Counted from the first letter of the stretch, positions 18,960 through 64,000 are shown. The stretch: 64,000 nt of DNA from Takakia lepidozioides (GCA_030704615.1 CM060733.1:49538001-49602000); one strand, 5' to 3'. Program-made: numbers and translations. Notes: a model not told the origin generated them from the sequence alone.

Positions 18960-19114
18960 GGGATGCACATATCCATAAAGTTGTTCAAACGGATCTCGTA
19001 GTATACAGGGCAGTAGAAGAAGAAGTGTTCTTCAGTTTCAATTTCCTTGTTGCGCCCTATGCAAGCTGGACATAGGCGGTCCTCCCGTTGCAGGTTTTCC
19101 CATCTGCCAGTCTC
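18960..19114 (-). mobile_element. LINE ORF2 3' end (Zn-knuckle), distal half of a LINE split by the MULE
   Basis: ETGRWENLQREDRLCPAC..ETEEHFFFYCPVYYEIR; joins in frame to 33445 when the MULE and one TSD are removed. Confidence 0.88.
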
Positions 19115-19533
19115 AGCGTAGCTACGGCGTGAGCCCAGCCCCGTGAGCCTGGGAGCTGAGCTCACGTTCAAGCTTTGAAGCGTGAGCTGAGCTCACGCTT
19201 CAGGGAAGCGTGAGCGGCATGAATCTGCTGGAGAAGCAGGTCCTATAGGCGAGGATTGCAGGAAGAGGGCCTATTACCGTGGACAAAACAAAGGAGGCCA
19301 CCATGCACCATGTCTGCAATGCGTGCCAAAAAAGAGGAATATGTAAATATGGCAGATTTGAGCTCAGAATGATTGACACAGTTTATTTCAATTCACAGAG
19401 AGACGCTTACAATGAATCGCAAGTGCATTTGCCCTGGTTCCGTGAACGAAATGTATATGTTTGTCATAAAATGAAAAGTCTTCACACGGCAACCTGGAAA
19501 CCAGCATGGGAAGCGGGCATGGCTCGTATGTGT

Positions 19534-22500
19534 TCAAAGAGAAGTTGGCGGAGCTCTACGCAAGGTGTCCCGCTGCAGAAGGGTGATGACTTCTCCGTAG
19601 CCTAGTGTGGCTTGGTGAATGAATTGGTCTCTCTTACCGTCACAACACATAATTACAAGGTATATGTAATATTGATGCTTGCAGGGGACCCACTTCCCTC
19701 TCATGCCGAGAGCGCCCTCACGCATTGTTACAAAATCCGGACAAGTGCACGATGGGAAATTCCCGATGGTAACCTGATATTCTTTGGCATGAAGAACTGA
19801 GCCAATTGACAGCACTGTGTAAATCCGTCCATACCCCGGGGAAGGGACTTCGGTGATACGAGTCACCCTAGCCTGCAAAATTCTAGCCGATTCCATCTTG
19901 CATTCGTGATCTGCACCCGAAGCAACACGGCGCACTGTTTTTCCATCTCTTTTTGTTGGGTGGGAGTCGGCACCGGGTGGAGGCATTGTCGGAGCATGTG
20001 GCACATCTGTGCCGACAGTGCATAAGGGCACCACCCGGGACCGTGCAAGACAAAACCCTCCCTCCTCCAGCATGCTTATCTCGGTTGAGGACAGCGATGT
20101 CCCAATTTTCACAGGCCAAATTGCGGGGGGAGGGGGCTTCATTATCACGGAAGGACGAACTGTTCCCTTCACGCATCGTGCCATATCGTCTGGGCAGAAC
20201 CAAAACTTGTGCTCTTTTGACTCCCCACTATGGTAAGGTCGGAACAACCCTGTGAATGTTGGAGCTGGAGTCCCCCTGGAGCCTTTGCATATTTTTGATT
20301 TGCATTTCTTGAATGAGGGGGTCCGAATTGCCATGCAAGCCACTCTAGATCCCGGTGGGGTGCGTTCTATATGCCAGTCACTATCAATGCAATCAGATTC
20401 CTGCACCATGGCCACCACCTCCTCCAATGGGATTTCCGCTGCTATGCTTGCATGTTCTGCACCTGCTCCACAGGAGGAGGACCCACCTGGGAAGGGGCCG
20501 GCACAGGACTTAGTCTGCACTGGAGACACCTTTGGCACAGAGAAATTGACCCTGTCTGGCCTATGGGAATCTCCATCTGACCCTGGAAGAGTGTTTAATT
20601 TCCTTTTGCATGATCCAAATCTTTCCTCGCCTTCCAAATGGGGGAGCCTGGATTGCAGAGGGGAGCCTTCAGTGCACCTGTTTAGAGCTCTGGCCATCTT
20701 TGACGGGTCTCCGGACCTACTCGCAGCCCTTAGCATCAACAAAGTCGTATCGGGGCCCTTCCCTCCACCCCGTCCCATCAGAAAATTGCGGTACCTGGTT
20801 TGTTGTGTAAGTGCCCGCACCATGTCATCAGCAGTGGCCACATACAAGTCACGACCTGCTTTGGTAGACTGTTGCATCCAGGCGTTGTGAACAGTCTCTG
20901 CCAAATTACACGATGGCATGTCGGCCAAGTCCTCCAAGGACATGTCCTGCAGGAGGCATTGCATGGAAATGTGAGGAAGGAAAAGAAATGGTAGAGGTTC
21001 TTCAAGTGACAATCGAACAACCCCAAATGAACAGGCACGATGCAAAGTGCATTTTGTGTTTAAGGAAAACTTGTGAGGCTTACCGTCGTCATGAAAGCTC
21101 CCCACTGTCTGTACCTGAAGTGCCAGAAAACCAACCAGTCCTCCAACTCCTTCAGGTGGATACCTGTAGCAGCACCAGAGGAGAACCACCAAGCCCGGAT
21201 TGCCTGGTAAGTGCTCTCAGCTTCTCCCATTGAGGTGGCATTCTTGTACTTCAGACAGAGCCTTCTATGCTCCAACTGAAGGTCAGGGCGAATGCAGCGC
21301 TTTGTATGACGTGCCAGAGATTGACTCCAATGGAAGAGGCATGTGCGCTCCCTATTTTCCATTGGGACCTAGGATCCCCCGAACCAAACACGCGCCGCAC
21401 TGCATTGAAATTTGCCTGTGCACTATCAGCCATGAAGCCCGCAAAATTTGTGTTCTGTATTCCATTGCGCTGCATGACGGCCAGGAGGGAATTCCACATG
21501 AGCATCTGGGATTCAGTGTCCTCCGACTGCATATCACAAATTGCTATGGAGAGCACACGCTGGTACGCTGGATCATACACATGGCACGCCATGGTTGTCC
21601 AACCCTTCACCCGTTTGCAGTGATCAAACATTAACCAACATTTAGCCAAATCTCCTCCAGGTTGCATTCGGCGGACAATGCTCACACCACTGCCTTGGCC
21701 CACAGCGGACATCTTGAACAAATACACTTTGGACGAGCCCTGGCCAGGGAACATACTGTTTTGAATGAATTCATAGCGACTCCTCCGTTTGAGGTCCATA
21801 ATGTTGTCCATGAATCCAGCAGTGCCTGTGCCCATTCTGAGTGCATTCACCTGGTTTCGAATATTGGGAGAGCTCAACACGGAGAAATGGTCCATGACTG
21901 CCTCAAGGGAATCTGCATCCAGCATTGGCTGTGTCGCATCCCCTTCACCCAGTATGTGTTTTTCCAGGAATGCCTTGCTAGCTGCAAGCGCTATAGCAGA
22001 AGGTGTTGCACAAGGGGCATTGTGGAACTCTTGCTTCAGTAGATTTCTAGCGATGTCCACGCTATCCCTGCAACTCCCTTTGGACACAGGATGCTCGTGT
22101 GCACCCATATGAATGCAGGCACGAGTCATTGTCTTGCATCGATGTGCCACCTGATACATACGAGCGTGGCAAACAGAAACACAGGACGGGGAAAGTTTGC
22201 AGAACCTGCACACAAAAGTATTGGTCTTGGGAGGTGCAAGCCCTGGGGTGAAAGGATTCAGGGGCACACCTTCCCACTCACTTTCGTTTGGCTGAGCGCT
22301 GTTTCTCAGCCGAGGGCAAGAAATATTCAGGCACTTGCAATGCCCAACGCAAACCGACCTCCGAAATTTCAAGCCAATGTCGTTATGGATGTTCGACGTT
22401 TTTGTCCTGCACCAAGGATGTCCGTCATGTTTCTTGTCCATGCCCTGCAGAAGCCCAGCCAGTCCACTGGAAGACGTGGGAGGGTTGAGCTCAAACAAGA

Positions 22501-23113
22501 TGTCCCCATCAAACTGAGCTGGCACGTATTGAACCCGTTGCACTGGAAGGGACTCCCAATCAACAAAACGTAGCTCGCTCTTGCACCCAGGCACACCTGC
22601 GAGGGCTTTCAATTTTGGAATGACACTTGTTATCTCTTGCAATTCGTCATCATCCAATAAGGGAGTTTGCACTGGCGGAGGAATCTCAGAAACATCCTCC
22701 GAGGACGAGTCCGAAAGAGTCACGAAGGTAGTGGATGTGCTCACCTCTTGTTTCACAGGAACTGTGCCCTTCTGTTGCACGACCGATGCTGCAGTGCCAG
22801 GGGTAACGACTGATCCTGCTGATTGTCTTCTCTCTTTTCCAAGGACACGGTATGTTCCTGGAAGGACTCTCCACTTCCTTCCACACTCGCCAACCAAGGG
22901 TTTCTCCAAGTGCCCAGAATCCAAATTCCCATCCTCGTCATACACCTCTTTCTGAACAAGCAGAGAACCCAACTCCAGCGGGAACACTGTAACCAGCTCA
23001 TCCTCATGAACAACTGCATACCCATCGTCGTCTGCAGTGGCAGTCAGTGGAAGAGTACCTGCATTGGAATGGAATCGAGCGAGTGCATCTCGCTCCCTCG
23101 ACATGTTTTCCAT
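19534..23113 (-). CDS. MULE transposase, ~1150 aa: GCM/WRKY-like Zn domain, DDE core, Cys-rich insert, SWIM finger; exons 23113-21084 and 20946-19534; one 1-nt frameshift near 21370
   Basis: DGHPWCRTKTSN..RSVCVGHCKC..C..CRFC..C..GAHEHP; LMFDH..FMADS..CLFHW..CNLAETVHNAW; FPSCTCPDF..PCKH; same intron position in copy B. Confidence 0.88.
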
Positions 23114-24046
23114 CACTGAACGAAACTGGCGATTCAGAACGGAATCCCCGAACTGAGAGCCCGTAATTATCGAAAGTGGAAATACCACCAGCAAACTGAG
23201 GTCAACAAGGGTAGCACCAAACCAAAGGCTGCCGGCGATGCATGCCAAGGATGTAGGGATGACGTGCACCTTCACCTCCCACCAACCAGAAAAACCGTTT
23301 TGAAAGACCAGAGCCACAAGAAGCCGTGCTGTTTTTGGATGGAAAACAAACCCTGAAAATGACATGAAACCATCCATTATGAAATGACGGCAACAACCCT
23401 GGAGAGCAGTAAACAGGAAGATCCGATTGTAATGAGATTGTGTTGCGCCAGAATAGCACAGAACAAACACTGACACTCCAAGAGATACCTCGCACGAATG
23501 TGTGCAACACATGGTCATATCCGACAAAATCCTTTATACCGAATGACCCCATGGGGACGGTCACGGCATAAAAAAAACCACAGGGCATGCAGTACAACAC
23601 ACGTGGATGCATATGTGAAGCATAACAATTATTGCGAATCTGGAAGAACTGCTCGGAATTGAAAAAGCACTACATTTCTACGGCACATTCGAATTTGAAA
23701 GAAGGCAAGGAGGCCGCCATGTATTGGCAGGCGGCGAAGTACATCTGACATATATCGCAAATGCATGCAACGGATGTTCTTTTTCTTCGGCGCTTTATTA
23801 GCTGGGTAATACAAAGACGCCAAAATGGATGAATTCCGTTCGCACACAATATCAACACCCGCATCCAAATACGGTTGACAACGTCCATTTTTATTTTTGT
23901 TACATGCGATACCAGGACTTGTTGCAAACGTCAAACTGGAGAGCTCCAGGGGCATCGTGGGGAGCCCTTGTTTCCAGCGGAGGAGAAAGAGAAGGAAGTC
24001 ATTATACTTCACGAGTTCTAGAAACAGGAATAGAGCTAGATATAGA

Positions 24047-27000
24047 ATGAGGATGGAAAGAGTGGAGGAAAAGGAAAAGGAGGAAGAAGAGGGAATACAG
24101 GAAAGTGTGGCAATGGAGGAGCAGGAATCTGGAGAAGAACAACAACCCAACATAGTTCCAGGAACAGGCGAGGAGGACACTGCGTCTGAGGGAGAGACAG
24201 ACGACATGGAGGAAGATGTTGACACTGGCCTCACGAAGAATGTGACCACGGGAAAGAGGAAGGGGGAGAGGCTCACCTACATAGTCGGCGAAGAGAGCAG
24301 CCCGAAGCGGAAAGGGTCCCCGGCAACTGGGGAGTCTTCTCGAGTACCTACGAAAAAGGTAAAATCTACAGGACCCACATTTGTGAAGAATTCGGCTTTC
24401 AATGGCAGGTATTTGAGAGAGAAAGAACCATTCAGTGGCAGCTCAAAGAGTGTGCGTTGCCGCACACTGTTTGAGCTGCACAAGTCACTGTTTAAAGTGC
24501 AAAATTCTTCCTTCAACGACACCTTTCTGAGGATGAAATGAACCCCGCACTTCCAGCTCAAACAGTGTGCGGCAACGCACACTGTTTGAGCAGATCTTCT
24601 CAATGTTTTAGGGTGCAAAATTTGGCCTTGGAGTCAGTTATCTGCGGGTGAAATGAACCCTTCACTGCCAGCCCAAACAGTGTGCGGCAACGCACACTGT
24701 TTGAGCTGAACATTTCAATGTTTTAGGGTGCGAAATTTGGACTTCAGGGGCACCTTTCTGAGGATGGAATGAACCCTGCACTGCCAGCTCAAACAGTGTG
24801 CGGCAACGCACACTGTTTGAGCTGAACATTTCAATGTTTTAGGGTGCAAAATTTGGACTTCAGGGGCACCTATAATAGGATGAAATGAACCCTTCACTGT
24901 CAGCCCAAGCAGTGTGCGGCAACGCACACTGTTTGAGCTGAACATTTCAATGTTTCTCGGTGCAAAATTTGGACTTCAGGGTGATCTATTTGAGGATGAA
25001 ATGAACCCTTCACTGTCAGACCAAACAGTGTGCGGCAACGCACACTGTTTGAGCTGAACATTTCAATGTTTTAGGGTGCAAAATTTGGTCTTCAGGGTAT
25101 GTTATCTGAGGTTGAAATGAACCCTTCGCAACCAGCTCAAACAGTGTGCGGCAACGCACACTGTTTGAGCAGATCTTTTCAATGTTTTAGGGTGCAAAAT
25201 TTGGTCTTGCTGTCTGTTATCTGAGGGTGAAATGAACCCTTCACTGCCAGCTCAGACAGTGTGCGGCAACGCACACTGTTTGAGCTGAACATTTCAATGT
25301 TTCAGGGTGCAAAATTTGGACTTCGGGGGCACCTATGTGAGGATGAAATGAACCCTTCACTGTCAGCCAAAACAGTGTGCGGCAATGCACACTGTTTGAG
25401 CTGAACATTTCAATGTTTTAGGGTGCAAAATTTGGTCTTGCTGTCTGTTATCTGAGGTTGAAATGAACCCTTCACAACCAGCTCAAACAGTGTGCGGCAA
25501 CGCACACTGTTTGAGCAGATCTTTTCAATGTTTTAGGGTGCAAAATTTGGTCTTGCTGTCTGTTATCTGGGGGTGAAATGAACCCTTCACTGCCAGCTCA
25601 GACAGTGTGTGGCAACGCACACTGTTTGAGCTGAACATTTCAATGTTTGTGGGTGCAAAATTTGGACTTCAGGGTGACCTGTTTGAGGATGAAATGAACC
25701 CTTCACTGTCAGCCCAAACAGTGTGCGGCAACGCACACTGTTTGAGCTGAACATTTCAATGTTTAGGGTGCAAAATTTGGTCTTCAAGGTATGTTATCTG
25801 AGGTTGAAATGAACCCTTCACAACCAGCTCAAACAGTGTGCGGCAACGCACACTGTTTGAGCTGAACATTTCAATGTTTTAGGGTGCAAAATTTGGTCTT
25901 GCTGTCTGTTATCTGAGGGTGAAATGAACCCTTCACTGCCAGCTCAGACAGTGTGCGGCAACGCACACTGTTTGAGCTGAACATTTCAATGTTTCAGGGT
26001 GCAAAATTTGGACTTCAGGGGCACCTATCTTAGGGTGAAATGAACCCTTCACTGCCAGCTCAGACAGTGTGCGGCAACGCACACTGTTTGAGCTGAACAT
26101 TTCAATGTTTCAGGGTGCAAAATTTGGACTTCAGGGGCACCTATAATAGGATGAAATGAACCCTTCACTGTCAGCCCAAACAGTGTGCGGCAACGCACAC
26201 TGTTTGAGCTGAACATTTCAATGTTTCAAGGTGCAAAATTTGGACTTCAGGGGCACCTATGTGAGGATGAAATGAACCCTTCACTGTCAGCCCAAACAGT
26301 GTGCGGCAACGCACACTGTTTGAGCTGAACATTTCAATGTTTTAGGGTGCAAAAATTGGACTTGCTGTCTGTTATCTGAGGGTGAAATGAACCCTTCACT
26401 GCCAGCTCAGACAGTGTGCGGCAACGCACACTGTTTGAGCTGAACATTTCAATGTTTTAGGGTGCAAAATTTGGACTTCAGGGGCACCTATAATGGATGA
26501 AATGAACCCTTCACTGTCAGCCCAAAAGTGTGCGGCAACGCACACTGTTTGAGCTGAACATTTCAATGTTTCTCGGGTGCAAAATTTGGACTTCAGGGTG
26601 ACCTATTTGAGGATGAAATGAACCCTTCACTGTCAGCCAAAACAGTGTGCGGCAACGCACACTGTTTGAGCTGAACATTTCAATGTTTTAGGGTGCAAAA
26701 TTTGGTCTTCAGGGTATGTTATCTGAGGTTGAAATGAACCCTTCGCAACCAGCTCAAACAGTGTGCGGCAACGCACACTGTTTGAGCAGACTTTTCAATG
26801 TTTTAGGGTGCAAAATTTGGTCTGCTGCTGTCTGTTATCTGAGGGTGAAATGAACCCTTCACTGCCAGCTCAGACAGTGTGCGGCAACGCACACTGTTTG
26901 AGCTGAACATTTCAATGTTTCAGGGTGCAAAATTTGGACTTCAGGGGCACCTATGTGAGGATGAAATGAACCCTTCACTGTCAGCCAAAACAGTGTGCGG

Positions 27001-30000
27001 CAACGCACACTGTTTGAGCTGAACATTTCAATGTTTTAGGGTGCAAAATTTGGTCTTGCTGTCTGGTATCTGAGGTTGAAATGAACCCTTCACAACCACT
27101 TCACACAGTGTGCGGCAACGCACACTGTTTGAGCAGATCTTTTCAATGTTTTAGGGTGCAAAATTTGGTCTTGCTGTCTCTTATCTGGGGGTGAAATGAA
27201 CCCTTCACTGCCAGCTCAGACAGTGTGCGGCAACGCACACTGTTTGAGCTGAACATTTCAATGTTTCTGGGTGCAAAATTTGGACTTCAGGGTGACCTGT
27301 TTGAGGATGAAATGAACCCTTCACTGTCAGCCCAAACAGTGTGCGGCAACGCACACTGTTTGAGCTGAACATTTCAATGTTTTAGGGTGCAAAATTTGGT
27401 CTTCAGGGTATGTTATCTGAGGTTGAAATGAACCCTTCACAACCAGCTCAAACAGTGTGCGGCAACGCACACTGTTTGAGCAGAACTTTCAATGTTTTAG
27501 GGTGCAAAATTTGGTCTTGCTGTCTGTTATCTGAGGGTGAAATGAACCCTTCACTGCCAGCTCAGACAGTGTGCGGCAACGCACACTGTTTGAGCTGAAC
27601 ATTTCAATGTTTCAGGGTGCAAAATTTGGACTTCAGGGGCACCTATAATATGATGAAATGAACCCTTCACTGTCAGCCAAACAGTGTGCGGCAACGCACA
27701 CTGTTTGAGCTGAACATTTCAATGTTTCAGGGTGCAAAATTTGGACTTCAGGGGCACCTAATATGATGAAATGAACCCTTCACTGTCAGCCCAAACAGTG
27801 TGCGGCAACGCACACTGTTTGAGCTGAACATTTCAATGTTTCAGGGTGCAAAATTTGGACTTCAGGGGCACCTATGTGAGGATGAAATGAACCCTTCACT
27901 GTCAGCCAAAACAGTGTGCGGCAACGCACACTGTTTGAGCTGAACATTTCAATGTTTTAGGGTGCAAAATTTGGTCTTGCTGTCTGTTATCTGGGGGTGA
28001 AATGAACCCTTCACTGCCAGCTCAGACAGTGTGCGGCAACGCACACTGTTTGAGCTGAACATTTCAATGTTTCAAGGTGCAAAATTTGGACTTCAGGGTG
28101 ACCTGTTTGAGGATGAAATGAACCCTTCACTGTCAGCTCAAACAGTGTGCGGCAACGCACACTGTTTGAGCTGAACATTTCAATGTTTTAGGGTGCAAAA
28201 TTTGGTCTTCAGGGTATGTTATCTGAGGTTGAAATGAACCCTTCACAACCAGCTCGAACAGTGTGCGGCAACGCACACTGTTTGAGCAGATCTTTTCAAT
28301 GTTTTAGGGTGCAAAATTTGGTCTTGCTGTCTGTTATCTGAGGGTGAAATGAACCCTTCACTGCCAGCTCAGACAGTGTGCGGCAACGCACACTGTTTGA
28401 GCTGAACATTTCAATGTTTCTGGGTGCAAAATTTGGACTTCAGGGGCACCTGTTTGAGGATGAAATGAACCCTTCACTGTCAGCCCAAACAGTGTGCGGC
28501 AACGCACACTGTTTGAGCTGAACATTTCAATGTTTTAGGGTGCAAAATTTGGTCTTCAGGGTAACATTTCTGGGGATAAAATGAACCCTTCACTGTCAGC
28601 TCAAACAGTCTGCGGAACCGCACACTGTTTAGGCAGAACATATCAATATTGAAGGGCGCAACCTTCGGCCCTCATGGGCACATATCTGAGGATGAAATGA
28701 ATCCTTTACTGCCAGCTCAAACAGTGTGCGGCAACGCACACTGTTTGAGCAGAACTTTTCAATGTTCTTTCCCTGTGAAAATCGGGAACATAGGGCAGGT
28801 CCGTGAGGATCAATGAACACTTACCTGGCAGCTCAAAGAACACTTACCTGTTTGATCCCACTTTTTCATGCATCAGTCGACGTTTCATTCCTCTCTTATA
28901 AGAATTTGAGTGAACAACCTTGCAGGAGAAAATGCAAAGTGTGGCGGATGAGGTCCCTCAGGGTCAGGGGAAGGAGACCATAGTTGATGTTGACGATGAG
29001 TTTTATGAAAGCAAAGCCGCTGAGATGCTGGGGGTCAAAAGGTGAACTCTCAGCTTGTGGTTCAAAGTATGCTTGCTCCTGGTGGGAGGTTGAAGATTCC
29101 CCTGTGTAGGTTGGTTTCCATGCCCGTCGTTCGTCCACCCCTTGTCAAAGACATTCTCAAGCTGGAGGCCGAGTTTGTTCATGGGTATTTGGATGGATCC
29201 GCAGTCTTTTACGTTTCTACTAGGGATTCTAGAGGTAACGAGCTCCTTGTGGATGAGTCAATCGTCGACTCCTGGGACCCCATTTGGAGACAGGTGAACG
29301 AATCCTTCGAACTTCTTCTCTCCAGGAAACCTTCCACCCAGGTATTCTCGGGGAAGATGTTTCACGTTTGGGATGGCAACCACCGGTTGCTTGCATGGAT
29401 GGCTGTCATTGGGAGGCTGCACTCACAGGAGGAAGAGTGGCATTACTCTGTTCGATCGATGGTGCTTGATTGTGACGACAACATGATGGGTCTTCTGACG
29501 GCAATGAATGATGTGAACAGGTTGGTTTCTCATTGTACATGTTGCACTTCTGGTTCCGTTCTTCCTTGATTCAAGTCCTTGAATTACATTCTGAAATTCA
29601 GATATCATTCTGCAGAGGGACGGAGACATCGCATGTCAAAACGAGTCTGGTTCACACACTGTATAGGATACAAAGGATCGGGCAGATGCCCTTGACCAAC
29701 TTCAAGACCATCCTTTCGGCAGAGATGTATAAGAAATGCGAAAGCTCCAAGACTTCGGAAACATGGTACTCGTTGACCCGTGAGGCTTTCATGGAGTACA
29801 TGTACACGGTGAGATACATCTTCCTTCATCTGGCCTTTCCATATTCCTGCTTCCACATGTTTGTTTCTGTCTGTCTCCCTTGACCTTGGATTGATGCAAC
29901 TCTCTTGCATTCCCTTGCAGCAAGACATTGCAGATGCAGGGGAGCGTGGCAAACTGGAATACTACAGCTCTACCCCTGAGGAGAGAAGGACAGCAAAGGG

Positions 30001-32658
30001 GGTTGAAAGTCACATCCAGAAGGAGATGAACGCTACAAGAAGGACAATAATGAGTGCTTTTGTGAAGCAGTTGAGAATGGCCGACCCATCATTCGGGCCG
30101 CAGTTTCTCCTGGAGATAAAAAACCATTATAACAAGCCAGGCAAGCCGGAGATGGCCCAGGAGAAGTTGCACAGGTTGTCTACCGCCGTCGTGTCTTCTG
30201 AACAGAAGGTGAAGTGGCTACAGATATGGAACTCCGATCCCACAGTTAGGGATACCCACATGTTCCCAAGGCCAGAGAAAGAGAAGAAGACCCAGCGTGT
30301 CGTTCCTGTCAGTGACAATGTGCTGGACACCTGGCTTCACAAGGCCACTTACTGGAGCCAGGTGTGATGTCCTCTCGTATCTCACTTTCTTTTCTCTTTT
30401 CCTGTCCTTCTCTTCCCATTGCCTCTTACATTCGCTGTGACTGTTTTTGGGTTCATTCTTCCATTTCAATTGTTTTGCAGTTGGAAGAAAGGGCCCGATC
30501 GGTTCTGCATACTCAGCTGGCTGACTATGGCATCACTATGACAGCTCCGAAGGTCTCCTTCGAAGCTTACATGAGGAAATGGAGAGCCACAGTGTGGCAC
30601 TCTGGTTTCTTTAGAGAGTTCAGCAAGGAGGGTGGCATCAGTCGAACAAATGAGCTTGACCAGCAGGAAAAAGGAGAGGAAGCCTGGAAACGATGCCTTT
30701 ACAGGTGCACACCCTTGCACTCTTTACTTGTGTTGTGGTTGCAATGTGTTGTGTGGCATACTGTTTAAGGGGGTCTTCCTGGTGTGTTGAAAAAGCTGGG
30801 ACACAATATGTGCACTGGAAAATGAGGCTGTGTCTGTTCCTGCAGGTACATTAGGTTTGTTCTCTTGGAAGAGAATTGCTTGGACAAACATCCAGATTTC
30901 GTGGACCTTTGGCTTGTCCCTGCTGGCAACCAGACCATGTTCACTGCTGGGATCTTGCATGACTGGGGCCCAGACCATCTTTCTTCTTGTGGTTGGTATT
31001 TGGATTGCCCTCCTTCAGAGACCCCAGCTGTAGAGTTGTCTTTGAGGAGAGAGAATGACCGTATTGCAGCCACTGCCGCAGCAGCGGACCTCGACATTCA
31101 TGAGCGTAATCTGAGGACTCTTGCAGAGAAGGAGCCTCCCGCTCAGGATACCCCGGGTAGAGGAAGAAAGGCAAAGGGAAAAGATGTTGCTGGTGTTGTG
31201 GGGAAGGGAAGGGGTAGAGGGAAGGTGGCACAAGGGCAGGGAAGTGTTGCAGCTATTGGCCCTGTGGAGCATGTCCAGCAGACTCCACCGCATGGTAGGG
31301 GATCCGGGAGAAAAAACAAGGGGGTGGTTGATCCAAGGACCCGTACCATGCAGTGGAACATCCCACGAGGGTCATTCGTCCAACCAGGTTGGAGATTGCC
31401 AACGTCGGGTTCCTTGCCATGATGGAGTCGAAGAAATCTGATTACAAGGGCGAGCCATCACCAGTGTGGGAGAGGATTGTCGAGTTCCTCAGCACGGTGC
31501 GTGTTCTCTTTGGGTTCTGTGGCTTCTGCTCTCTTTGTCTGCTGTGGGCATGGATCGTTTATAAACTTGTCAGAATTCCATTGTATTTTTGTTTGCAGGC
31601 TAAAATGACCAAATCGTGGGTGAACGGGAAGGAGAAGCCATATGCAGCGGAACTCATCATCTTGGACATCCCTGATGGGTTGGCAGTCCCGGATATCCCT
31701 CCATCGGGTGCTTGTCCGGGTTGGAATGCATTTGATGAGCGCTACTGGCGGTGGGTTTTTTCCTTTTGCAACTTCTTCCTTTCCGATGCAGGTGTTTTGG
31801 TTCTCATCCAGTCCATCGATGTTCGGTGTCGCCGTGCCCTTGCCAGCTATTTGAAAGCCTCGGGCATGAGAGTCGTGAAGACATGGAATTGTGTGAACAG
31901 CATGTACCTTACGAAGGGGGATCGTCCGGGAGAGATGGTGAGTTTCCCTTCTTCTTCCTCTTCTTTTTTGTTCTGGGATTGTGTTGTATAGGTCGCTCGA
32001 ACTCATATGTAGGGGCCCGATTTTATTTTGGTTCTTAGTTCCTTGTGGATGTCATGTTCGCAGACTCGTCTGTTTGAAGCTGTTTGTCTCGTCCGGGTGC
32101 ATCCACCAACGACTCCGGCCGGCATTACGGAGTTTGCCATCACTCACGGGGGCAAGTTCATAGATGACAGGACAGATCCTCCCACGGATGACATGCATCA
32201 CAACTACGTCGACAACAACTTGTGCTTGCGAAGGGGGAATGGGGTTCCTTGGAGAGGGGCGAGGGAGAGGAGCCCGGCTTTCATTCAAACGATTGTGGAG
32301 TGCTGCACCTACACAGACGCCAGAGTTCTGGATTTGTCGATGGGCACAGGTTCGTCTCTTCAACATTCACATTTCATGAGGTTTGATTGAGCTTGCACTT
32401 TCAGCACTTTCCACCGTTCCGAATGTGTCTTCAATGTTGCTTACTTCATTCTATTCCACTGCAGGTGCTTCGTACCACGCTTGCAAGGCCAGTGCGCGAC
32501 ATGTCTTTGGGATTGAAGGGGATGCTGAGATTTACAAGAACCTCCTGATGGGTTTGGGTGGACACACTTCTCAGGTCCTTCCGAAGCCCCGTCCCGCTGA
32601 TACTGGTACAGAGGAGACTTCTGACAAGGAGCTGGACTCCGACTTTGCCTGTGAGTAA
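24047..32658 (+). CDS. ParB/Srx-like domain fused to a beta-class N6A/N4C DNA methyltransferase fold, ~1080 aa, 9 exons (24047-24358, 28926-29520, 29616-29808, 29921-30361, 30481-30704, 30846-31496, 31599-31937, 32064-32349, 32465-32658); 1-nt frameshifts near 29030 and ~31330
   Basis: ParB-like IPLCRL..VRP..HGY..FHVWDGNHRLLAW; MTase motif-IV-like ELIILDIPDG followed by ERSPAFIQTIVECCT..VLDLSMGTGASYHACKASARHVFGIEGDAEIY; all introns GT-AG and in phase; intron positions shared with copy B. Confidence 0.8.
24420..28770. repeat. Tandem array of 38 ~115-116-bp units, each with a palindrome of up to 40 bp, in intron 1 of the ParB-MTase gene
   Basis: CAGCTCAAACAGTGTGCG-GCAA-CGCACACTGTTTGAGCTG counted 38 times (first and penultimate degenerate); a ~22-bp variable segment takes a few recurring variants. 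Confidence 0.96.
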
Positions 32659-33444
32659 GTTCAACCTGTGCATGCTTGCATTGTTGTTTCAATATCGAGA
32701 ATCGCTGTTCTTGAGGCAAAGTGCACATGGGAGACATCCTCTTCGTTGGACTTGTGCATTGCATCATTGTGTTAAAAATGGGATTTTGTGGACATGTGTA
32801 GGAGTCCGCGTGCTTCCACTTGCCCTCCTGGGCTATCACACCTATTTGGACTTGTTTTCAGTCCTCCTCGGTCTTGTGTGCTACCTGTCTATGCGGAGGC
32901 ACTCGCAGCAAGCATGTCCGTTCATGGCACTCAGAGTCCACCTTGCGATGGCCTTCGTAGAACACGTGGTGTTGGGGCCAGAATCTTTGTAGATGACATA
33001 GCACAGGAGGTGGACACTGATTGTGATGACTGCGACACTTGATATGAAGTATTCTTTTGGTTTAATTCTGGGACAAATTTGAAATGGGATGGTTGTGTGT
33101 CCTTATTGTCCTCTTTGCAATGTGTGCGTGGAATTCACATTCATGGTTCCAAACTATTGTTGGAGATGGGGGTTGCATGGACTGCCCGGATTGTTCCTTC
33201 AATATATTTGTTGTTTTGTGGACCTCACAGACTTGAGTACATTGCAAAAACAAACAAACCACTTTGTTCTCAATTCTCAATTCTCCCCACATCAACCCGC
33301 GGAAATAGGTGACACCACTCGGAAATAGGTGACATCCGCGGAAATAGGCACTGTTTGCATGCTGACGTGGCGTGAGCCTGTGCTGGGCTCACGCTTTCCT
33401 GGGCTCACAGGCTCACGCCTCCAGGCTCACGGAATAGCACCCCC

Positions 33445-34440
33445 CTGCCAGTCTCTATCCGTAGGTTGTGGGAACCCACCCTGAACCGCCCCAATGCCCT
33501 CAAGAGGGAAGGAGGTAAGGGTGCTGAAAGGTAATTTGGTCTGAAGATTCTATCATCGCGGAGCACCAAGAATGTCTCTCGATAGAAGTGGAGCTTTGTT
33601 GTGAGATTGGGTAGCATCCAAGTTCTCTTGACATGTAATTCCATAAGCTCTCTCCGAATGAGTCTGTTGCGGTCATGTCTGGATGTGATGTCCACTTCAT
33701 CTGGGTTCATTGGTAATAGGAAAGCAGTAGAAAGTTCGTTACGTTTCAATAAACTGTCCACTCGAGCATACCAGGAGTTCCCGAAACTTGCAGCTTTGAG
33801 CCTCATAGATGTTGTGAGGGCCCTTGCCACTAGCCCTTTGGGTGGAAGGGCCTGCAATCTATGGAGAAAGATTGTAAGCCTGAACTGTGCCTCGGATTGC
33901 AATGGTACACATGTGAACTCTGCACCTAGGATCTGAGATGGAGTTGTGCTCCTGGCGCTAAGCATTGATTGGAGAAAAGATGACTGTAATGGTTCCAAAT
34001 TCTTTTCCCACCAGGAGACAGGGACACCAGGTGCCCAGAACTCACAACCATTGATGGTAGCAGGGCTGACGATGGTGTCAAACAGCCACTTTTTGGTCGG
34101 GGGATGCCGCAGATGTATTTGCTTGCATTTGGCGTGAAGGCGGACGGAGGCCACCTTACCTTTAGTCAATCTGTCCAAGGCAGTGGCTGCAAAGTGAAAC
34201 TTGGGGGAGTGGATAACCAGACCTAGGTACCGGTATGATTTGACAATCTCAATTTCCTACTGGTTGAAGATGAATCTACGATCAGCCTGGCCATTGAAGA
34301 CCATGATCTTGGTCTTGCTAAGATTGACTTGCATCCCATAGTCTTTGCAGAACTATTCCAAAATTTTGAGATGGCGTTGCAGAAAGACCGGGGATTGTGC
34401 CAAAATGGCAACATCATAAGCGTAGAGGAGATCTGATTGG
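33445..34440 (-). mobile_element. 5'-truncated LINE ORF2 fragment (RT C-terminal part), proximal half
   Basis: LLYAYDVAIL (YADD-like), VNLSKTKIMVF, YRYLG, LFDTIVSP..GCEFW, FRVGSHNLRIETGR. Confidence 0.88.
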
Positions 34441-35499
34441 GCAGAAAATGAAGTTAGGCAGAAAACATCCCTGAACATGTTTTCAATTTGTGACATGGGG
34501 GAGGACATCGTGGAAAAACCTTCAGGTCTACCACTGTGTGCAGAGGGACTAGTTTTTAGGTCAAGGAAATGTTGCTTTGTCACGTCATTGCACCTGCGTT
34601 GGAGTACGCATTTGCTATATGCGTTGATAACTCCAACGAGGCTAGGTCTGCAATATCCTTTCAATTGAATTGTGTCTGCACCTGTGTTTACCAACATTGA
34701 GAGTCTTTAGGCCTTTTGGGGCTCCGTTGCTGGGCTCCGCCATACAGCCATTTGCTGATTGTGTGAATAGATGTCCACTGGATATGTGCAAAACCCGGAT
34801 GGATGGTAAGTTTCATGTGGTACTGATGTGAACCCGCCCACATTCTGTTTCTTCACCAATGAATGGTCTTACATGTTATGAGGACATTCTGTCCCTCTCC
34901 TTTTCAGTTTTTGGCACTTGCGCTGCAGGGGAGTGGGTTTGAGGTCAGCCAATCCATAGTTGTGGTTGTGGGATGGTTTGTGCTCTGGTGACGTTGTGTT
35001 CAGTAGGACTACAGCTGATGCACCTTGTGTGTGGGATGTTTTTGGTAGCGGAAGGGGAGTGAAGCTGCAGCAAAGCACTCACAGCCACCACACAATGCCA
35101 ACCAACACCAACCTTGGCACCCACCCCCTGCCGGATGGTCTCCACAACAGAGTGCACCATGGGGAGCCCCCCCTGCTTCGGGGTCGTGGCGCTGGCTTCC
35201 TGATGTTGCCACGTCACAATGGGGGCCTCCCACATCTCCATACGGCCCTCCCCCCTCCGGCACACATCAGTCACCCCCCACAACGTATGACGGCGCTGCT
35301 CCAGAGCATGGGGGCAGGAAACGGACATCAGAGCTGAGGAAGGAACGACGCCATGCCATGAAACAATGGGAAGGAGATGGAGAGGGAAGGGTGGCTGCAG
35401 GGCTAAAGCGCCACAAGGTGGAGGTGCATGGAAATGGAGTCATCAATGTTGGCTGCGAAGGTAAGGAACACTGGCAGCGTGATTTGCGTGGCTTGGCAT

Positions 35500-43768: not shown

Positions 43769-43770
43769 AA

Positions 43771-46970: not shown

Positions 46971-48950
46971 AGTGATGGTCGGTACCGACCATCACTATGA
47001 AGTCATGTTGATTTGCTTTGCATTCCTCTGTTTCAGGTTTTTCATACCAATTGTTTATGACTGGCGGTACCGCCATTCACTGTTCTTCAGATCATAGAGT
47101 CAGTATGATTGTCTTTCCAGCACTCTTTCTCTTTGATTCTCTAGCAGGAACCTGTGATTGTCGGCAACGACATTCTCTTTCATTTCAAAACTCACATTCT
47201 GATACAAAAGAAAGTGAGTGTCGGTGACGACAATAACTATGATCCAGTATTGATTTGCACCAAACGCAATGTTTTCCATTCGTGAGTGTTGTTAATGCCA
47301 TTCGATTCTCTTTGTGAGCTTCCTGTATCTGCATGCGTGGAGAGAGTGTGATGGTCGCCACTGACCATCAATATTTAGTCATATTGTTTTGCATTGCATT
47401 TTCTCTGTTTCAGGTTGAACAGACTAATGAAAAGGAATGGCGGTACCGCCAATCACTTTTCTTGAGACTATACTGTAGCTTCATGTCTAAATACAGTTGC
47501 AAAGTACATTCCAAAGAGACAAGAAATAGTGATTGTCTTTAACAACCATCACAATGGAGTCTCTCTTATTAACGTCAATCGCATTCCTTTGAAAACATAG
47601 ACTTGTTGCATTTTAGACAATGTGCATTCCACTTACTTTCTGTTACAAACTAAAGTGAGCACTACAACAGATCGCGGTAGTTATGACTGCCAAACCGTGG
47701 TAGTCATGGTTTTCTTGACTTTGACCATGACTGCACCATGTTTAGATGAAATTGACCTCCCGCGTTCATACGACTGTAGTCATAAGAATGACTATCTAAG
47801 TAGTCATCTGTATGACTACATGGCTCCGGAATGGGCGGAAGGCTGGTCAACGGCAATTGACCAGATTTAGCTCACCATTCATAGTCATTTCCATGACTAC
47901 TGGGGATTTTGTAATTTGGTGTGTATAATACAATTAAAACACCATATGATCACATGAATGACTAATGGGTGTATTGGTTAGCAAGTAGTGAACTATAATT
48001 TTTATAGTAAAGAGGTTGCAAGTTCAAACTCCTCTAAGTACAATCAAATGGATAAGATGGCCCTAGGGTTAGTAGGCGAGCTAGAGATAGCACGTGGTAG
48101 CCTAGATGGGCTGCCACGTGGTTTTTTCATTATTATAAAATACATTATGTCAGGTGGCACAATGCGGTGCAACGCAGCGTCCGACATATGTGTTTTTTTT
48201 TTTTTTAAATTTAATTTTTAATCAATTGCGCCTCGCCACGTGGCGACTGCAGTATGATGGTATATATGACTGCAGTGAGAGATATCACTTGGTTCATCTG
48301 ACTGTAGTCATCCGGACCGTACCATCTTGTACTCATTGTATTCACTTGGTTTGCATAACTTATAGTCATAGAAGTCATATGTACCGTTTATGACTGCAGA
48401 ATAGTCATATATACAGTCATAAATACTGCGATCTGTTGTAGTGGAGTGTCGGTGCCGCCAATCACTAAGAGATATATTTCTTTGCACCAAACCGATCTTG
48501 TCAGTCTTTTGAGTGTAATGTTTTTTTATCGTCGTTACGCCGTTCGCTAATGCTCAAAACCTTTCTGTACCTGCTTGGCCAGAAAGAGAGTGATGGTCGG
48601 TACCAACCATCACTATGCAGTCATAGTGTTTTGGTTTGCATTCGTTTGTATCAGCTTTGTTAGTGTAGATGGTTGTGATTGTCGGTGCCGCCAATCACTG
48701 TGATTTGAGACAAGACAGACTGATAGTCGATACCGACATTCACTTTGCAGACACAATGATTTGGTTTGCCATATTCTGCAACACAAGATACACATACAGA
48801 TTATGATTGTCGGTACAGCCAATTGTCTCTTCAGAACATAGAGAACTTTTTGTTGTAAAGAAGCTGCATTAAACATTTTTAATCACTTTGAAGTCACTGT
48901 GCTGTCATTGTTTTGCCTGTGGACTGTGATTGTCGGTGGCGACCATCACT
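46971..48950. repeat. About 13 dispersed palindromes, consensus AGTGATGGTCG-GTAC-CGACCATCACT
   Basis: Perfect 26-bp palindrome at 46971-46996; variants near 47057, 47154, 47213, 47347, 47433, 47528, 48589, 48674, 48721, 48803, 48924; one split by the CACTA MITE. Confidence 0.85.
47660..48443. mobile_element. Non-autonomous CACTA element, 784 bp
   Basis: TIR CACTACAACAGATCGC / GCGATCTGTTGTAGTG; 3-bp TSD GAG on both sides; ATGACT/AGTCAT subterminal repeats. Confidence 0.95.
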
Positions 48951-49509
48951 ATTTGCACATAACTGAGTGTCTGATCGGCATATCATCATGCAGAAAACTG
49001 TGAAGTCCAAGCTGACAGGATTAGAGGCAAAAGGTTTTGGAGATGGGGACGAGTTTGCCAAGAGCTCGGAGAATAACGATGAAACAGATGAACCTGAAGT
49101 GCACTACCTTGACAAGGTGAAAGAACTCATGTCATCCCAAAAGGTAAACTCTCAGGAGGTTATTAGGGACATGCTCGTCTCTGGAGGGCGTCTGGACATC
49201 CCACTATGCCGGATGATATCTATGCATGTTGTGCGTCCTCCACTTTCCCATGACAAACTGATTTTGTGCATGGATACAGACTTGGTACACAAGTTTTTTA
49301 TGTATCACTGACGGATACAAATGGGAAAAGCACATTAGTGTCTCCTGAGATCACCGATACCTGGGATGAGTGCTGGAAAGATGTTAATGAGGAGTTCAAG
49401 TTGGGCCTCATGATGGGAAATAACACCCAGCAATTCTGCAACCACATGGTCTACATACGTGCACCCGGAGATGCAGCAAGAGAAATTGCACCGGCTGGTC
49501 ATCTCCATG

Positions 49510-53837: not shown

Positions 53838-53985
53838 TTGTTTGCGTTTGTAGTGCATGTGCGAGCCTGCTGGGGAAGGGCAAAGAGGTCCATGGTTGCA
53901 TCGTCAAAGCTGGAATTGTGGCAGATGTCATTCTGAACAATACCCTTGTGGACAGGGAGTGTTCAATAATATGGCTGAGCGAAGG
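53838..53985 (+). pseudogene. PPR fragment continuation
   Basis: VCVCSACASLLGKGKEVHGCIVKAGIVADVILNNTLVD. Confidence 0.85.
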
Positions 53986-56900
53986 ATAGAGTGTAATGTC
54001 TTTTGGTGCATGTCTCCACCAAAGTCTGCATGCAAGCTAGGGATTTCTCCCGTGCATCTCTCCAAGGGACACCAGTCGACCTTTTCGAGGTTCGACCTGA
54101 GTCCACGTAATTGAAGATTACATCATCCTCCACAGGCTCGCAGGTGGGGTCAATGTGAGCTGCAAGGTCCCTCAACTGAAACTCAACAATACCAGGAGGA
54201 AGAGTGTCCTTACGCACCCTCACCAGGCACAAAGCTTCGAACACCCGAGTCTGTCAATAATCACGAAGAGAGCATGAGGCAAAAGACAAAACCAACTTTT
54301 GACATTTACATCAGAACCACTAAACTTTAATTCAAAGGAACCAACTCACTTTCTGCCTCGTGAACTCGCCCTTCGTAAGAGGCAGAGTGTTGATGCATGT
54401 CCAAGTTTTGATGACACGAAACCCGGAAGCTTTCATGTAGTTGAAAAGAGTTCTCCGTGCCGACATGTCCTTTGACTGCATGAGAAGAAGAGCCCCCGAG
54501 TCAGAAAGGAATTTGTTGTTGAATGAGAAGGCCCACTGCCAGTAACGAGAATCCGATTTGTTCCAAGTGGGGGTTGAATTGGAAGGCAACACATCAGGGA
54601 CAGGGAAACCGTCAGGAATGTCCAGCACCACAAGGTCAGTCGCGTATGCCTGCTGAACTCCATTCACCCAATCCGGCCTTTTTGTGACCTACAGCCAAAA
54701 ACAGGAGAGTCAGAAGCCCAATCCAGATCCAACAGGAAATCAATCCCATCGACAAGCCAGAACAAGTTGCCAAAACAAAATTATTCATACAACAGTTAAG
54801 ACATATGTGCTTACCTGAGTGAGAAACGAAACAAGCATGTCCCATGATTTCGAAGGCACCCCTTTGAATGTCGACTTCTTGGATTCCATCATTGCCAGAA
54901 AACTTTCATTCACCACCTTACGATGGAACTGGCCCAAAACCCTGGATGCATGTTCTCTCGCATTGAAAGGTTGCTCCCTCGACTTTGCTGTTCTCCTATC
55001 TCTCCTAGTTGGAGAAGGTTGTCTCTCAGCGACCTCTGACGGGCCTTGTTCCTGCGGAGCTGCACTCTTCCCCTTCCCCTTCGGATCCCCGGCAATCTTC
55101 CCCTTCCGTTTTGGAGTAGCAGATTTCTTAGGCTCTTTTGGAGCCAGAGCAACAATGATTCTGTCCTGAATGTCTTTGTCAGCCAGTGGGGCAAGTGCCA
55201 CGGCGTTGTCGTTAAGGTTTCTCAAAACAACTTCATCGAATGGTGTGTCCTGTTTTGGCAGATCGAGGTACCATCCACAGTCTCTGAAGTGCGCCCTGCT
55301 CCAGCCTCTGGCAATACCAGCCGTGTACATTGTCTTGTCATTGGAGGGGTCAGCCCACGAGTAGATGAAGTCTGGGTCATCACTAAGGTACTTTCCCGGT
55401 ATGAGGACATGATACATGTACCTGAATGACACACACACCCAAAATCCAGACAGTCAATCGATCTGATCAGGACACACATCACACATCACAAAAAGTGTAT
55501 TGGCATGCAGGTCAGTAATACTGATAAACTAATGTTTGAAAGCCCGATTCAAATTGCGTTGATGCAATGTTGATTCAAGCTGAAATGGAAAACACCAAAT
55601 TTGGAGAATTGCACTTTCAACAAGCACGTATGAGAGGGAAAGCCCATTATCCTAAAACATCTCATGCACAACATGGAACCCCAATCAACCTTGCGTTGAC
55701 GCAAAGAAGATTGGCGGATACACCTATGATAATGTAGCATTGAAAGAGACAGTGATTGGCAACGGAATTCAACATTGCGTCAACGCAAGGTTGTTTTCAT
55801 TAACAGAGGAAATGGAAAACAGTGCTTGAAAACAACCATCCATATCAGATCTTCTGGTATGGATATTCAACCTTGCGTTGACGCAATGTTGAATTCCTCT
55901 GCTGAAACACTTGTCCATGGTATTTGATAACCTTAACTTTCCTACCATTGTATGGAAATCGGGGTATTTAGGCGGGACATTTCTAGCAATCCATACCGTC
56001 AAACAACGTTGCGTCAACGCAAGGCTGTTTGTTGGTACAGTGTAAGCTCTAAACAACATTTCAAACAGACTCCAAACCGACTTTAAGTTCATCCTGGCAG
56101 CATTGCAACTGGAAACCACCAAAAAAACAGCCCAAGAACACAGGAAAACCTACACAGCCTGGCCCTTCATCAACCTTGCGTTGACGGAAGGTTGATTTGC
56201 CTATCAGTTTTTGCCCTTTCACATGCAGAATAACGACTTCATTGGATACCCCAGGTACATGAAAGTGAAACCAAAACAACAGGATACAAGCTTGCGTTAA
56301 CGCAATGTTGCTCGGCTGCACGTCCAGAGCCTTTAGAGCTCCCTGAAAACCTCCAAATTCGCAGTTCTACATGGAAAAAACGAAACAAGAACACAGAAAC
56401 ATACACTTCAAGTACCAGATTTGTTTCTTGGAGGTCACACCTGTACAACACTCGTTTCATTGCTTGCTCGCTGTTGTACTGGTTTTTGAATTCGTAGGAC
56501 CTAGAGATTCTTTTTTTTCTCTCAAACTCCCTGAAGAAACAGTTGTTCCAGACAGCAAGCTTCCATCTCCTGATATAGGCCTCCAGTGTGACCGGGGGCA
56601 AGCCATCTGGATTTTGGAGTCTGCCATTGACTCCCCAAGTGCAGCCACCGCTCGTTTTTCCAACTGCAGCAAGAAAGATCATAAGAATTGTGGAGAGAGC
56701 ACGGAGCAGCACAAGCATTTGAAAATGGTTTTGTGGAAACTTTACTTGGCTCCAGAAGATTGCTTTGTGTAGCCATTGGTCGAATGTGTGGTCGCTAACA
56801 ACTTTTATTGCTTGTGTCTTTGAGTCCCTCTCAGGAGATGGGAACATGTTGGTGTCTCTCACAAGTGGATCGGAATTCCAGATCTCCAACCACCTGATTT

Positions 56901-59158: not shown

Positions 59159-59910
59159 CCTCTCCTTAGCGTGTACCCTTTGCTTGTTTGATGTGAAGTA
59201 AAGTGTTCTTCAACGTTTTCTTCTCCCTCGTCTCTACAGAATCCAGGGTTGCAAGGACAATATGGAGAAGAAGGAAAAAATGGGGCTACGGTGGGTTCAG
59301 CGCAAGGCCTTCCACGCCTAGATGCTCGCTCGGAACGACCTGTGCGCCACATGCTCATTCCACATGCATGGCGAACACGTGTCTATCTAACCGTTATGAA
59401 TATCTCTGGAAATCATTTTTTTCTCATCCACTGAAATTCGTTCGGGTCCACCACTCATCCGAAAAAGTTCATTGATGAGTAATAGCTTTCGGGATGTTTC
59501 AGAGGAATGTGAAGTATGTACAGTTGTACAGTGGTGCAGGTGCCATTAAAATTGAATGGAAATGGGCATCTCATCTGGAATCTCTGACATGATAGGCAAA
59601 TGGCGGCTCTGTCAGTCAATCTTGCTGAGTTGGTTGTCCAATGCACTGGTGGGGCACCTGTGAGGAAACAGTTGAATTCTTTGATTAGGGCTGACATTAT
59701 CCACTCCGCATTTGGGCACTTTGCGACCGTCCACTTGGTACACATTTCTACGATGTGCCGAACCGCGTTAGGAGACCTGCAAGCGGGTGCGACACCTGCA
59801 ACTGTGTGTAAGGACGTCATCTATACAGCCAAAAAACTCCGCTCTAGTACAACCTGCAATCATAAGCAACGTCGGACTCTGAACTGTTCGTTTTGAAGCA
59901 ACATTGACAG

Positions 59911-63607: not shown

Positions 63608-63830
63608 AAATCAACCTCGTGCGTTAACACGAGGATTACTTGGAGTTTTCCAAATCCCCCTTGTGCCGACACAAGGTTGATTTTAGTTCTAAGAAAAGAA
63701 GTATGAAGTTCTCTGAATCAACCTCGTGTTGACACGATGTTGATTTTAGTTCCAGGAAAACAACCTCGTGTTAACACAACGTTCATTTCAGTTCTAGGAA
63801 ATGAAGCTCATGTTAACAGAAGGTTGAACT
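63608..63830. repeat. Five subterminal palindromes of type ATCAACCTCGTG-TTAA-CACGAGGTTGAT
   Basis: Degenerate relatives of the copy-B intronic palindrome, downstream of the transposase. Confidence 0.75.
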
Positions 63831-64000
63831 CCAGGAAAGCCCGAAACCCTTCATCCGTTTCACCTTCATGTGGTGAAATCAGCAGTTGGGGGCCCCACGG
63901 TTATAGGCCCACCTTCTTTGTGGTGATGTGGCATGACCTGGACCAGGCTCACGCCACGTCAACATCAGCGCCACATCAGCTGCGTGAGCGTAGGCTCACG

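Follow-up and report, generated by a model that had tools for sequence, protein, structure and literature searches.

Family-specific palindromes in the ParB-methyltransferase-like genes of Mutator-like transposons in Takakia lepidozioides: candidate docking sites for the accessory protein

We analyzed a 64,000-nucleotide stretch of Takakia lepidozioides DNA (GCA_030704615.1 CM060733.1:49538001-49602000; hereafter the window), which carries three copies, A, B and C, of an accessory gene of Mutator-like elements (MULEs) whose product is predicted to begin with a ParB-like domain and, in A and B, to end with an amino-methyltransferase-like domain. Each copy is accompanied by a palindrome family of its own, unrelated in sequence to the other two and built on a common geometry: arms of 10-11 bp, a 6-bp spacer and, often, pyrimidine-purine steps at the center. 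A dyad of fixed geometry and family-specific sequence, which is invariant within an otherwise varying repeat and occurs in both orientations, is best accommodated by a site for a dimeric protein, and we consider it probable, judging from the sequences, that each family's palindromes serve as sites at which a dimer of the element's own accessory protein docks.

RESULTS

Three palindrome families in the window

In copy A, the palindromes are embedded in a tandem array of 37.6 copies of a 116-bp unit, as delimited by TRF. The palindromic 28-mer was found 21 times exactly, 37 times at up to two mismatches and 38 times at up to four (span 24445-28746), 38 being the number given in an initial annotation of the window. 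Its geometry is 11-6-11, the arms being usually extendable to ~18 bp (about 18-4-18), and the spacer is inverted in the first copy of the array. The array has the organization of a classic minisatellite, including a higher-order structure, and the palindrome is its least variable part: one of the 28 palindrome columns is polymorphic, as opposed to 33 of the 93 columns elsewhere in the unit (p 6e-4). When 37 units were aligned, 72 of 74 CpGs were found to be retained; the observed/expected (o/e) CpG ratio of the window is 0.58.

The B palindrome has 13 matches at up to six mismatches, one of them exact: seven at 55547-56312, four at 58177-58731 and two at 63654/63717. With degenerate copies counted, the B gene contains 12 two-armed sites. 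For C, one exact match, eight matches at up to six mismatches and 12-13 sites recognized by a degenerate consensus were obtained, so that the initial figure of ~13 palindromes in each of B and C holds once degenerate copies are included. That annotation had also described an array in each copy and assigned all three families to positions 24420..28770. The tandem organization is in fact peculiar to A, and the B and C sites, which fall outside this interval, are dispersed at irregular spacings (45-190 bp). They share no body or flank: each site covers only 26-44 bp, and the flanks are mostly unrelated (median flank identity 0.30). Spacers are found in both orientations in B and C which, together with the unrelated flanks, is consistent with a double-stranded site. 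A few sites are centered off-register (one B half-site, one site at the B end and one in the relative L060).

Location and core sequence follow the initial description in part. Intron 1, as we infer it from splice signals and phase, would extend from 24359 to 28925 in A and from 58130 to 58797 in B; it would thus contain the A sites and some of the B sites, the others being divided between a later intron and the region downstream of the transposase gene. The CG-N4-CG core reported as conserved is present in most sites (six of seven sampled in A, 10/13 in B and 9/13 in C), but is no rule among relatives: one L008 type has it, other pyrimidine-purine steps take its place in L012, L020, L019 and L006, and it is absent from L023, L002 and the second L008 type. 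In the variant sites at the B end (63610-63830), both arms have changed symmetrically and both core CpGs have become TG and CA.

As a control for chance, the window outside A, B and C was divided into 3-kb tiles. The best palindrome family in a tile had a single member, except for one tile with a family of three, which corresponds to a duplicated segment at 1-3 kb.

The carrier elements

The coordinates of the features are collected in Table 1. Element A is bounded by identical 11-bp direct repeats, a length within the 8-11 bp given for MULE target-site duplications (PMC6446971). The empty-site junction is present in public contigs (loose ends, runs X1, X6 and X7). In run X1, 13,909 short contigs match the tested stretch at 90-100% identity, many of them being variants at 90-99%, which suggests many close copies but is not a copy number. 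Long terminal inverted repeats (TIRs) were not found in A, whose ends display only clusters of a 7-8 bp motif in inverted arrangement; A thus fits the non-TIR type of MULE. The motif, common to both A ends and the visible B end, differs from the intronic palindromes; GCGTGAGC was found in only one of 67 relative loci and is thus no general feature of the relatives. Three copies of a 19-20 bp repeat, GGAAATAGG, are present just inside the right end of A (33295-33348).

Only two genes, divergently arranged, were found in A. The transposase columns D, D, CLFHW and E are conserved in A, B and eight relative loci, with CLFHW itself in A and B. The SWIM finger was recognized in the B transposase (PF04434, E 6e-4), and the same CxC..CxH is present in A. 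No Pfam MULE match was obtained for the window proteins, the MULE assignment resting on motif reading, and the zinc region is one that we take to be GCM-like from its pattern. The comparison with VANDAL elements made at the outset is apt as regards the carrier, which is of the MULE type and devoid of long TIRs. In the accessory gene of A, homopolymer runs are affected by indels of a single base, public contigs being one base longer there. An assignment of this gene to the surrounding CACTA element was rejected, A being provided with a transposase and ends of its own. The open reading frame (ORF) split by A has a zf-RVT match (E 0.04, left part only) and further motifs that we assume to be those of a LINE; this fragment itself lies inside the CACTA element recognized through Pfam.

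Element B has the same gene pair as A, in reverse. The two are 43-73% identical, depending on the region (57% in the zinc region of the transposase and 43-64% in the accessory exons), and the alignment is confined to coding DNA: terminal motifs are common to A and B, palindromes are not, and the non-coding DNA cannot be aligned. C is a truncated 5' fragment in which neither methyltransferase exons nor a transposase were found. The CACTA-ended miniature inverted-repeat transposable element (MITE) located among the C sites (47660-48443) measures 784 bp, with 16-bp TIRs and ATGACTG-type internal repeats.

Table 1. Coordinates of elements A, B and C and of associated features in the window
Feature	Position	Strand	Remarks
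Left target-site duplication, 11 bp	19104..19114	+	identical to 33445-33455; a duplication of 9-10 bp with displaced ends is also compatible
Element A, 14.3-kb Mutator-like transposon without long TIRs	19115..33444	.	direct repeats; interrupted ORF continues across
Left subterminal CGTGAGC / GCTCACG cluster	19127..19216	.	six motif matches; likely transposase sites
MULE-type transposase gene of A	19537..23110	-	GCM/WRKY-like zinc region, D..D..CxxH..E, SWIM; this copy contains a frameshift
Accessory gene A (ParB-like, helical middle, amino-methyltransferase-like)	24047..33042	+	putative spliced model; exon homology to Riccia proteins, B and relative loci
Array A, 38 palindromes in a 116-bp tandem unit	24421..28766	+	in putative intron 1, 24359-28925
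Exon with ParB/Srx-fold domain, DGNHR motif	28926..29521	+	
Exons of beta-class amino-methyltransferase-like domain	31596..32655	+	motif IV is DIPD; Riccia homologues matched by blastp at E 1e-7 to 1e-3
Right subterminal cluster of terminal motif	33370..33431	.	four motif matches
Right target-site duplication	33445..33455	+	identical to left copy
LINE-like ORF fragment split by A	33445..34680	-	rest at about 18900-19114; reading frames continuous through the duplication
Family C palindromes, about 13, dispersed	46971..48951	+	
CACTA-ended non-autonomous element	47660..48443	.	GAG duplication; sits among C sites
Relic ParB-like exon of C	48967..49457	+	no further exons
Accessory gene B	53966..59209	-	cut off inside the methyltransferase domain
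B palindromes, seven	55547..56312	.	in intron between exon-5 and exon-6 homologues
B palindromes, five, and one half-site	58177..58739	.	putative intron 1; partly an old 276-bp duplication
Transposase gene of B	59941..63405	+	divergent from accessory gene B
Variant B palindromes, four to five, TG-N4-CA core	63610..63830	.	downstream of B transposase
Terminal motif cluster of B	63947..64000	.	end motif of A; runs off the window

The accessory protein

The accessory protein is predicted to begin with a ParB/Srx fold. The model of the ParB exon (pLDDT 80) retrieved, in Foldseek, top rows that nearly all belong to this fold (best E 0.02), and its VIA comparison with Myxococcus ParB 7bnk gave a middling Z of 6.7 (root-mean-square deviation (rmsd) 2.7, 89 residues aligned). 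The best VIA matches were the CTP-binding ParB, PadC, Noc and KorB proteins (Z 6.1-6.7), followed by Srx/SerK proteins (Z 4.5-5.7); no match was obtained at the sequence level in Pfam, NCBIfam, PHROG or PDB. An arginine (R37), a DGNHR motif and a C-terminal D-x-N are invariant in the domain; to our mind they resemble the ParB boxes, and equally motifs of the Srx/SerK type.

The C-terminal domain is predicted to have the fold of beta-class amino-methyltransferases with the motif order IV...I (VIA Z 15-17, rmsd 3.2-4.1, ~200 residues aligned). This fold was recognized on a model of the homologue P0166, which gave the best match (Z 17.2, rmsd 3.2, 198 residues); the window exons align to Riccia homologues of this kind. 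A profile search with Riccia homologues reached 5hek at E 1e-8, and PF01555 matched the homologue P0162 at E 5e-5, below the curated cut-off. Predicted structures and, for the methyltransferase half, profile matches speak for both halves of the ParB-methyltransferase gene initially annotated. The catalytic motif (D/N/S)PP(Y/F/W) is absent from A and B, where DIPD is found in its place; relatives have DLPT, DMPS or DMPT (Riccia), DVPF (Adiantum) and DYPE (L004). Because motif IV reads D-x-P-x instead of DPPY, catalysis is uncertain, and methyl transfer by an altered active site, as considered from the model, is quite possible if on balance not expected.

The two domains are separated by a ~320-residue region that is confidently helical in the model. 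The structure atlas returned no usable match for it and structure-library searches no outstanding one, which does not in itself make it a new fold. Neither a helix-turn-helix nor a C-terminal dimerization domain was identified in the accessory protein by searches that were dominated by the methyltransferase domain, the middle region not having been folded alone.

The ParB-exon family is large, with 1,300 representatives at E<=0.001. Long homologues come from the liverwort Riccia sorocarpa (26/26 matches) and the fern Adiantum nelumboides; four Riccia proteins (P0162, P0160, P0163 and P0171) are automatically named 'Trimethylguanosine synthase' in UniRef, which looks like a mislabel. None of 124 pattern matches in viral contigs and none of 33 in prokaryotic genomes was a relative of the ParB exon, and no donor was found there; phage ParB/methylase proteins match the accessory protein by fold only. 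The methyltransferase exon, when used alone, recovered no longer homologue.

Palindromes in related loci

Sixty-seven related loci from one metagenome scan were dereplicated into 36 groups, of which the 26 with at least 600 bases upstream were used and 10 dropped. A divergent transposase gene is present in eight groups (L012, L019, L027, L044/L046, L051, L062 and L067, with L019 and L046 counted apart and L026, L053, L064 and L065 being duplicates). At least three copies of a palindrome of their own, always even-centered, were found upstream of the ParB exon in seven of the 26 loci, as compared with none of the 26 shuffles and one of 20 real control segments taken from flanks. After repeat masking, the density of palindromes with 10-bp arms in the DNA preceding the ParB exon was 0.71/kb for a 6-bp spacer and 0.94/kb for a 4-bp spacer, the values for the flanks being 0.15-0.16/kb. 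At least one such palindrome was observed in 13/26 and 15/26 loci, respectively, against ~6 expected (p 0.002 and <0.001). Even-centered palindromes are thus enriched ~4-6 fold, and 2-3 fold when the two richest loci are removed, while those with odd spacers display no enrichment upstream of the ParB exon in the 26 loci.

The palindromes are specific: a matrix of 14 motif types over 37 regions is nearly diagonal, each type being almost confined to its own locus or clade, and no match to any of the 14 was found in 126,558 flanking bases. Among 18 loci, half-sites become less similar as the distance between the proteins grows (rho -0.41, p 0.001 by permutation; the deep nodes of the tree are weak), so that palindrome type tracks the protein phylogeny, a comparison that the initial annotation had called for. 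Such tracking does not amount to the co-evolution of sites and protein that it further proposed, being expected from descent, and the arms are no better conserved than their flanks. As for the co-resident families, the A and B half-sites have four of 10 bases in common, while pairs at that protein distance average 7.9 (16 pairs), which is a weak hint, from sequence comparison, of rapid divergence between them.

Two further arrangements were observed in these loci. Half-sites are chained head-to-head and tail-to-tail in 16-17 bp steps, one arm taking part in two palindromes, in L002 (1-200), L008 (1263-1600) and L046 (near 9820). A palindrome-rich repeat of ~800-900 bp lies upstream of the ParB exon in L023, L032, L051, L066 and L067, and is also present in the flanks of other loci.

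Evidence against docking sites, and alternative explanations

Several observations weigh against docking of the accessory protein. The A unit contains further invariant stretches besides the palindrome, and recent homogenization of the array reduces the weight of the column test. Nineteen of the 26 loci have no palindrome family of three. The upstream DNA of related loci can still be aligned at 66-80%, so that tracking of the tree is what descent would produce, and palindrome arms are not better conserved than flanks in such copies, many stop codons being present in those compared (223/281 versus 3105/4099 positions; 79% versus 76%, p=0.19). Two unrelated palindrome types coexist within one element in L008, L019, L023 and L066, which is not simply explained by one protein. 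A sequence-specific DNA-binding domain was not identified in the middle region, structure searches being swamped by the methyltransferase domain. The aromatic residue of motif IV is missing from A, B and the Riccia proteins (DIPD, DLPT, DMPS), and in the bdelloid N4CMT the change of SPPY to APPA is described as abolishing activity (PMC8885841). Finally, MULE transposases can themselves be sequence-specific activators, according to a recent preprint (bioRxiv 10.64898/2026.08.24.746577).

The element's transposase, through its GCM/WRKY-like region, might then bind the palindromes as internal activator or synapsis sites, the accessory gene being a mere host. We regard this as distinctly unlikely. 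The AtMu1 transposase is indeed reported to activate its cognate copies in a sequence-specific manner (bioRxiv 10.64898/2026.08.24.746577), WRKY-GCM1 domains are described in MULE transposases (PMC1702500), A and B have diverged as far in the zinc region as in the accessory exons, and variant sites are present downstream of the B transposase gene. However, the ends of A and B, which are the usual place of transposase sites, have a different motif in common, and most palindromes are concentrated in the accessory gene, at a distance of several kb from these ends. With a terminal motif already available to the transposase and the sites gathered in the accessory gene, we favor the accessory protein as the binder. 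Moreover, inverted-repeat arrays of red algae accompany a ParB-like gene on an element of the EnSpm type, that is, of another superfamily, and such arrays may thus follow the ParB-like gene rather than one kind of transposase.

Just as improbable, in our view, is a neutral origin, in which slippage and tandem expansion within a large intron would start from a hairpin-prone palindrome while self-templated repair maintains its symmetry. The minisatellite nature of array A is what this explanation predicts, and so is the lack of excess conservation of arms between related copies; compensated changes also exceed those in shuffles (37 versus 20), in a test biased by site selection. It fails to predict that unrelated sequences of different families have one length and one even-centered geometry at the same place in the gene, the invariant spacer of A or the many B and C copies with unrelated flanks.

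It is very unlikely that the palindromes act as structures (pre-mRNA hairpins, sources of small RNAs or cruciforms) controlling splicing, silencing or recombination. Arms do reach 18-20 bp in A and B, and most sites are intronic, but deviations from symmetry are mostly one-sided, unpaired positions far outnumbering compensated ones in most families, spacers are found in both orientations, and the arms keep to a length of about 10 bp from family to family instead of varying.

Independent MITE or satellite insertions, which the initial annotation had named as the finding that would overturn its proposal if they were common elsewhere, are an extremely improbable source: such insertions do occur (the CACTA-type MITE inside C, and an abundant ~800-bp repeat upstream in several loci), but the B and C sites have neither the body between inverted ends that defines a MITE nor a common flank, the 126.6 kb of flanks contain no match and the enrichment survives repeat masking.

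Two other readings were dropped: a CRISPR-like one for B and C, since the spacing is irregular and only two genes were found, and one in terms of a tyrosine recombinase, suggested by the resemblance of the 11-6-11 geometry to dif, since no search revealed such a domain.

Other features of the window

A large CACTA element occupies 10641-16915 (-), 35049-37495 (+) and 45400-46644, with Tnp2 (Pfam), a weak Transposase_24 match (E 0.18) and a cargo gene for a NIF/FCP1-like phosphatase (E 3e-7). Its right end is TAGTG at 46644, with 22 GCGAC/GTCGC motifs in 1 kb; the left end was not found in the window. A Gypsy-type retroelement (37535-44398), whose long terminal repeats are 99-100% identical and contain two palindromes each, has a CpG o/e of 0.91 and is thus probably recent. 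At 471-5746, a 4.4-kb unit lies between long direct repeats (90-97%); it includes a 466-amino acid ORF at 2005-3402 (-) devoid of Pfam matches, and imperfect palindromes are found at 1033, 1124, 5442 and 5535. A decayed PPR gene with a duplication spaced by 2929 bp (49950-53960) adjoins the cut end of gene B. Such PPR relics, together with the spliced genes and the homologues named above, are what one would expect of a plant, probably a seed-free one.

DISCUSSION

If the palindromes are docking sites, the two proteins of the element would divide the work: the transposase would read the terminal motif common to A and B, and the accessory protein the long palindrome, probably via its helical middle region. 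The site may have been multiplied by tandem duplication, as in A now and earlier in B with its 276-bp duplication, after which spacers between sites would drift and sites become dispersed. Through occupancy of the sites, a family might mark its own copies, protect them or control its own gene.

Provided that binding holds, clamp spreading of the ParB type is suggested by analogy but is doubtful; methylation and an anti-silencing role, like spreading, may be envisaged by the same analogy. The complete scheme, in which a ParB clamp-methyltransferase protein would load at its own 10-6-10 palindrome, spread, and write or read a mark other than 5-methylcytosine that keeps its own copies active, we judge unlikely.

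Our literature searches revealed no account of a land-plant MULE family with a ParB-methyltransferase gene or with family-specific 10-6-10 sites. The idea of self-binding is already in print for the red-algal PAG3 and for the ParB-methylase gene of Ectocarpus. Three co-resident families with distinct candidate sites, together with ~10 more types from relatives, make a protein-by-site binding matrix possible. Should docking prove true, these elements would represent a second sequence-specific self-recognition system of plant transposons beside VANC, assembled from parts of prokaryotic type, and might bring a ParB-type switch and 4mC/6mA chemistry onto plant chromatin. Should loading, spreading and the proposed mark also hold, a large MULE family of seed-free land plants would contain natural, orthogonal load-and-spread epigenome editors.

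Among known systems, ParB-parS, Noc and KorB share with these elements the ParB/Srx fold and repeated dyad sites near the gene. The parS palindrome is about 16 bp long, and ParB works with a ParA partner. By contrast, the present sites measure 26-28 bp and include a spacer, and no ParA was identified, only two genes having been found in the element; by the features tested, this is not a ParB-parS system. The initial likening of the palindromes to parS or VANC target sites does not extend to their form, which differs from both.

The VANDAL/VANC system has a similar layout: a non-TIR MULE encodes an accessory protein, and family-specific motifs are tandemly amplified in non-coding DNA, namely in introns and in intergenic and terminal sequences, as described in two reports (PMC5735166, PMC6446971). 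The VANC motifs are presented there as 8-9 bp long and not as palindromic, whereas the present sites are palindromes of 26-28 bp; demethylation has been shown for VANC, whereas the present family is known from its sequence. VANC proteins have DUF1985/DUF287 instead of ParB or methyltransferase folds, and neither domain was matched by Pfam in the window exons or full-length homologues. The accessory system is therefore laid out like VANDAL/VANC without being a member of it, domains and motif form being different.

Fold and motif order of the C-terminal domain are those of the beta-class amino-methyltransferases M.MboIIA, CcrM, M1.HpyAVI and bdelloid N4CMT, and of Marchantia DN4MT1. Here, the domain is carried on a transposon, and has D-x-P-x where DPPY, SPPY or TSPPY are reported (PMC8885841, 10.1101/2021.02.12.428880).

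Two algal genes are also comparable. The accessory gene of Ectocarpus Sola1-1_Ec32 (~1100 amino acids), on the strand opposite to the transposase, combines a ParB-like and an N4C/N6A methyltransferase domain on a DNA transposon, as do the genes described here, and has been suggested to act on its own element by binding and modifying it (PMC12477816). It differs, in a comparison made by description, in its Sola1 carrier and brown-algal host, and the main text of that report makes no mention of palindromes. PAG3, from the giant Plavaka (EnSpm) transposons of red algae, is likewise an accessory gene of a transposon, with a ParB-like domain at the N-terminus and tandem arrays of inverted repeats next to it, for which self-binding has been proposed (bioRxiv 10.1101/2025.02.11.637652, Petroll et al.). 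The structural matches agree, the best HHpred match of PAG3 being 7BNR and the top VIA rows here 7bnk/7bnr. Compared again by description, the carrier is an EnSpm element in red algae but a MULE in land plants; PAG3 terminates with a 2OG oxygenase, the methylase being a separate gene, PAG2, and the main text describing it gives no family-specific sequences or geometry, whereas in the Takakia elements ParB-like and methyltransferase-like domains belong to one gene and each family has a palindrome of its own.

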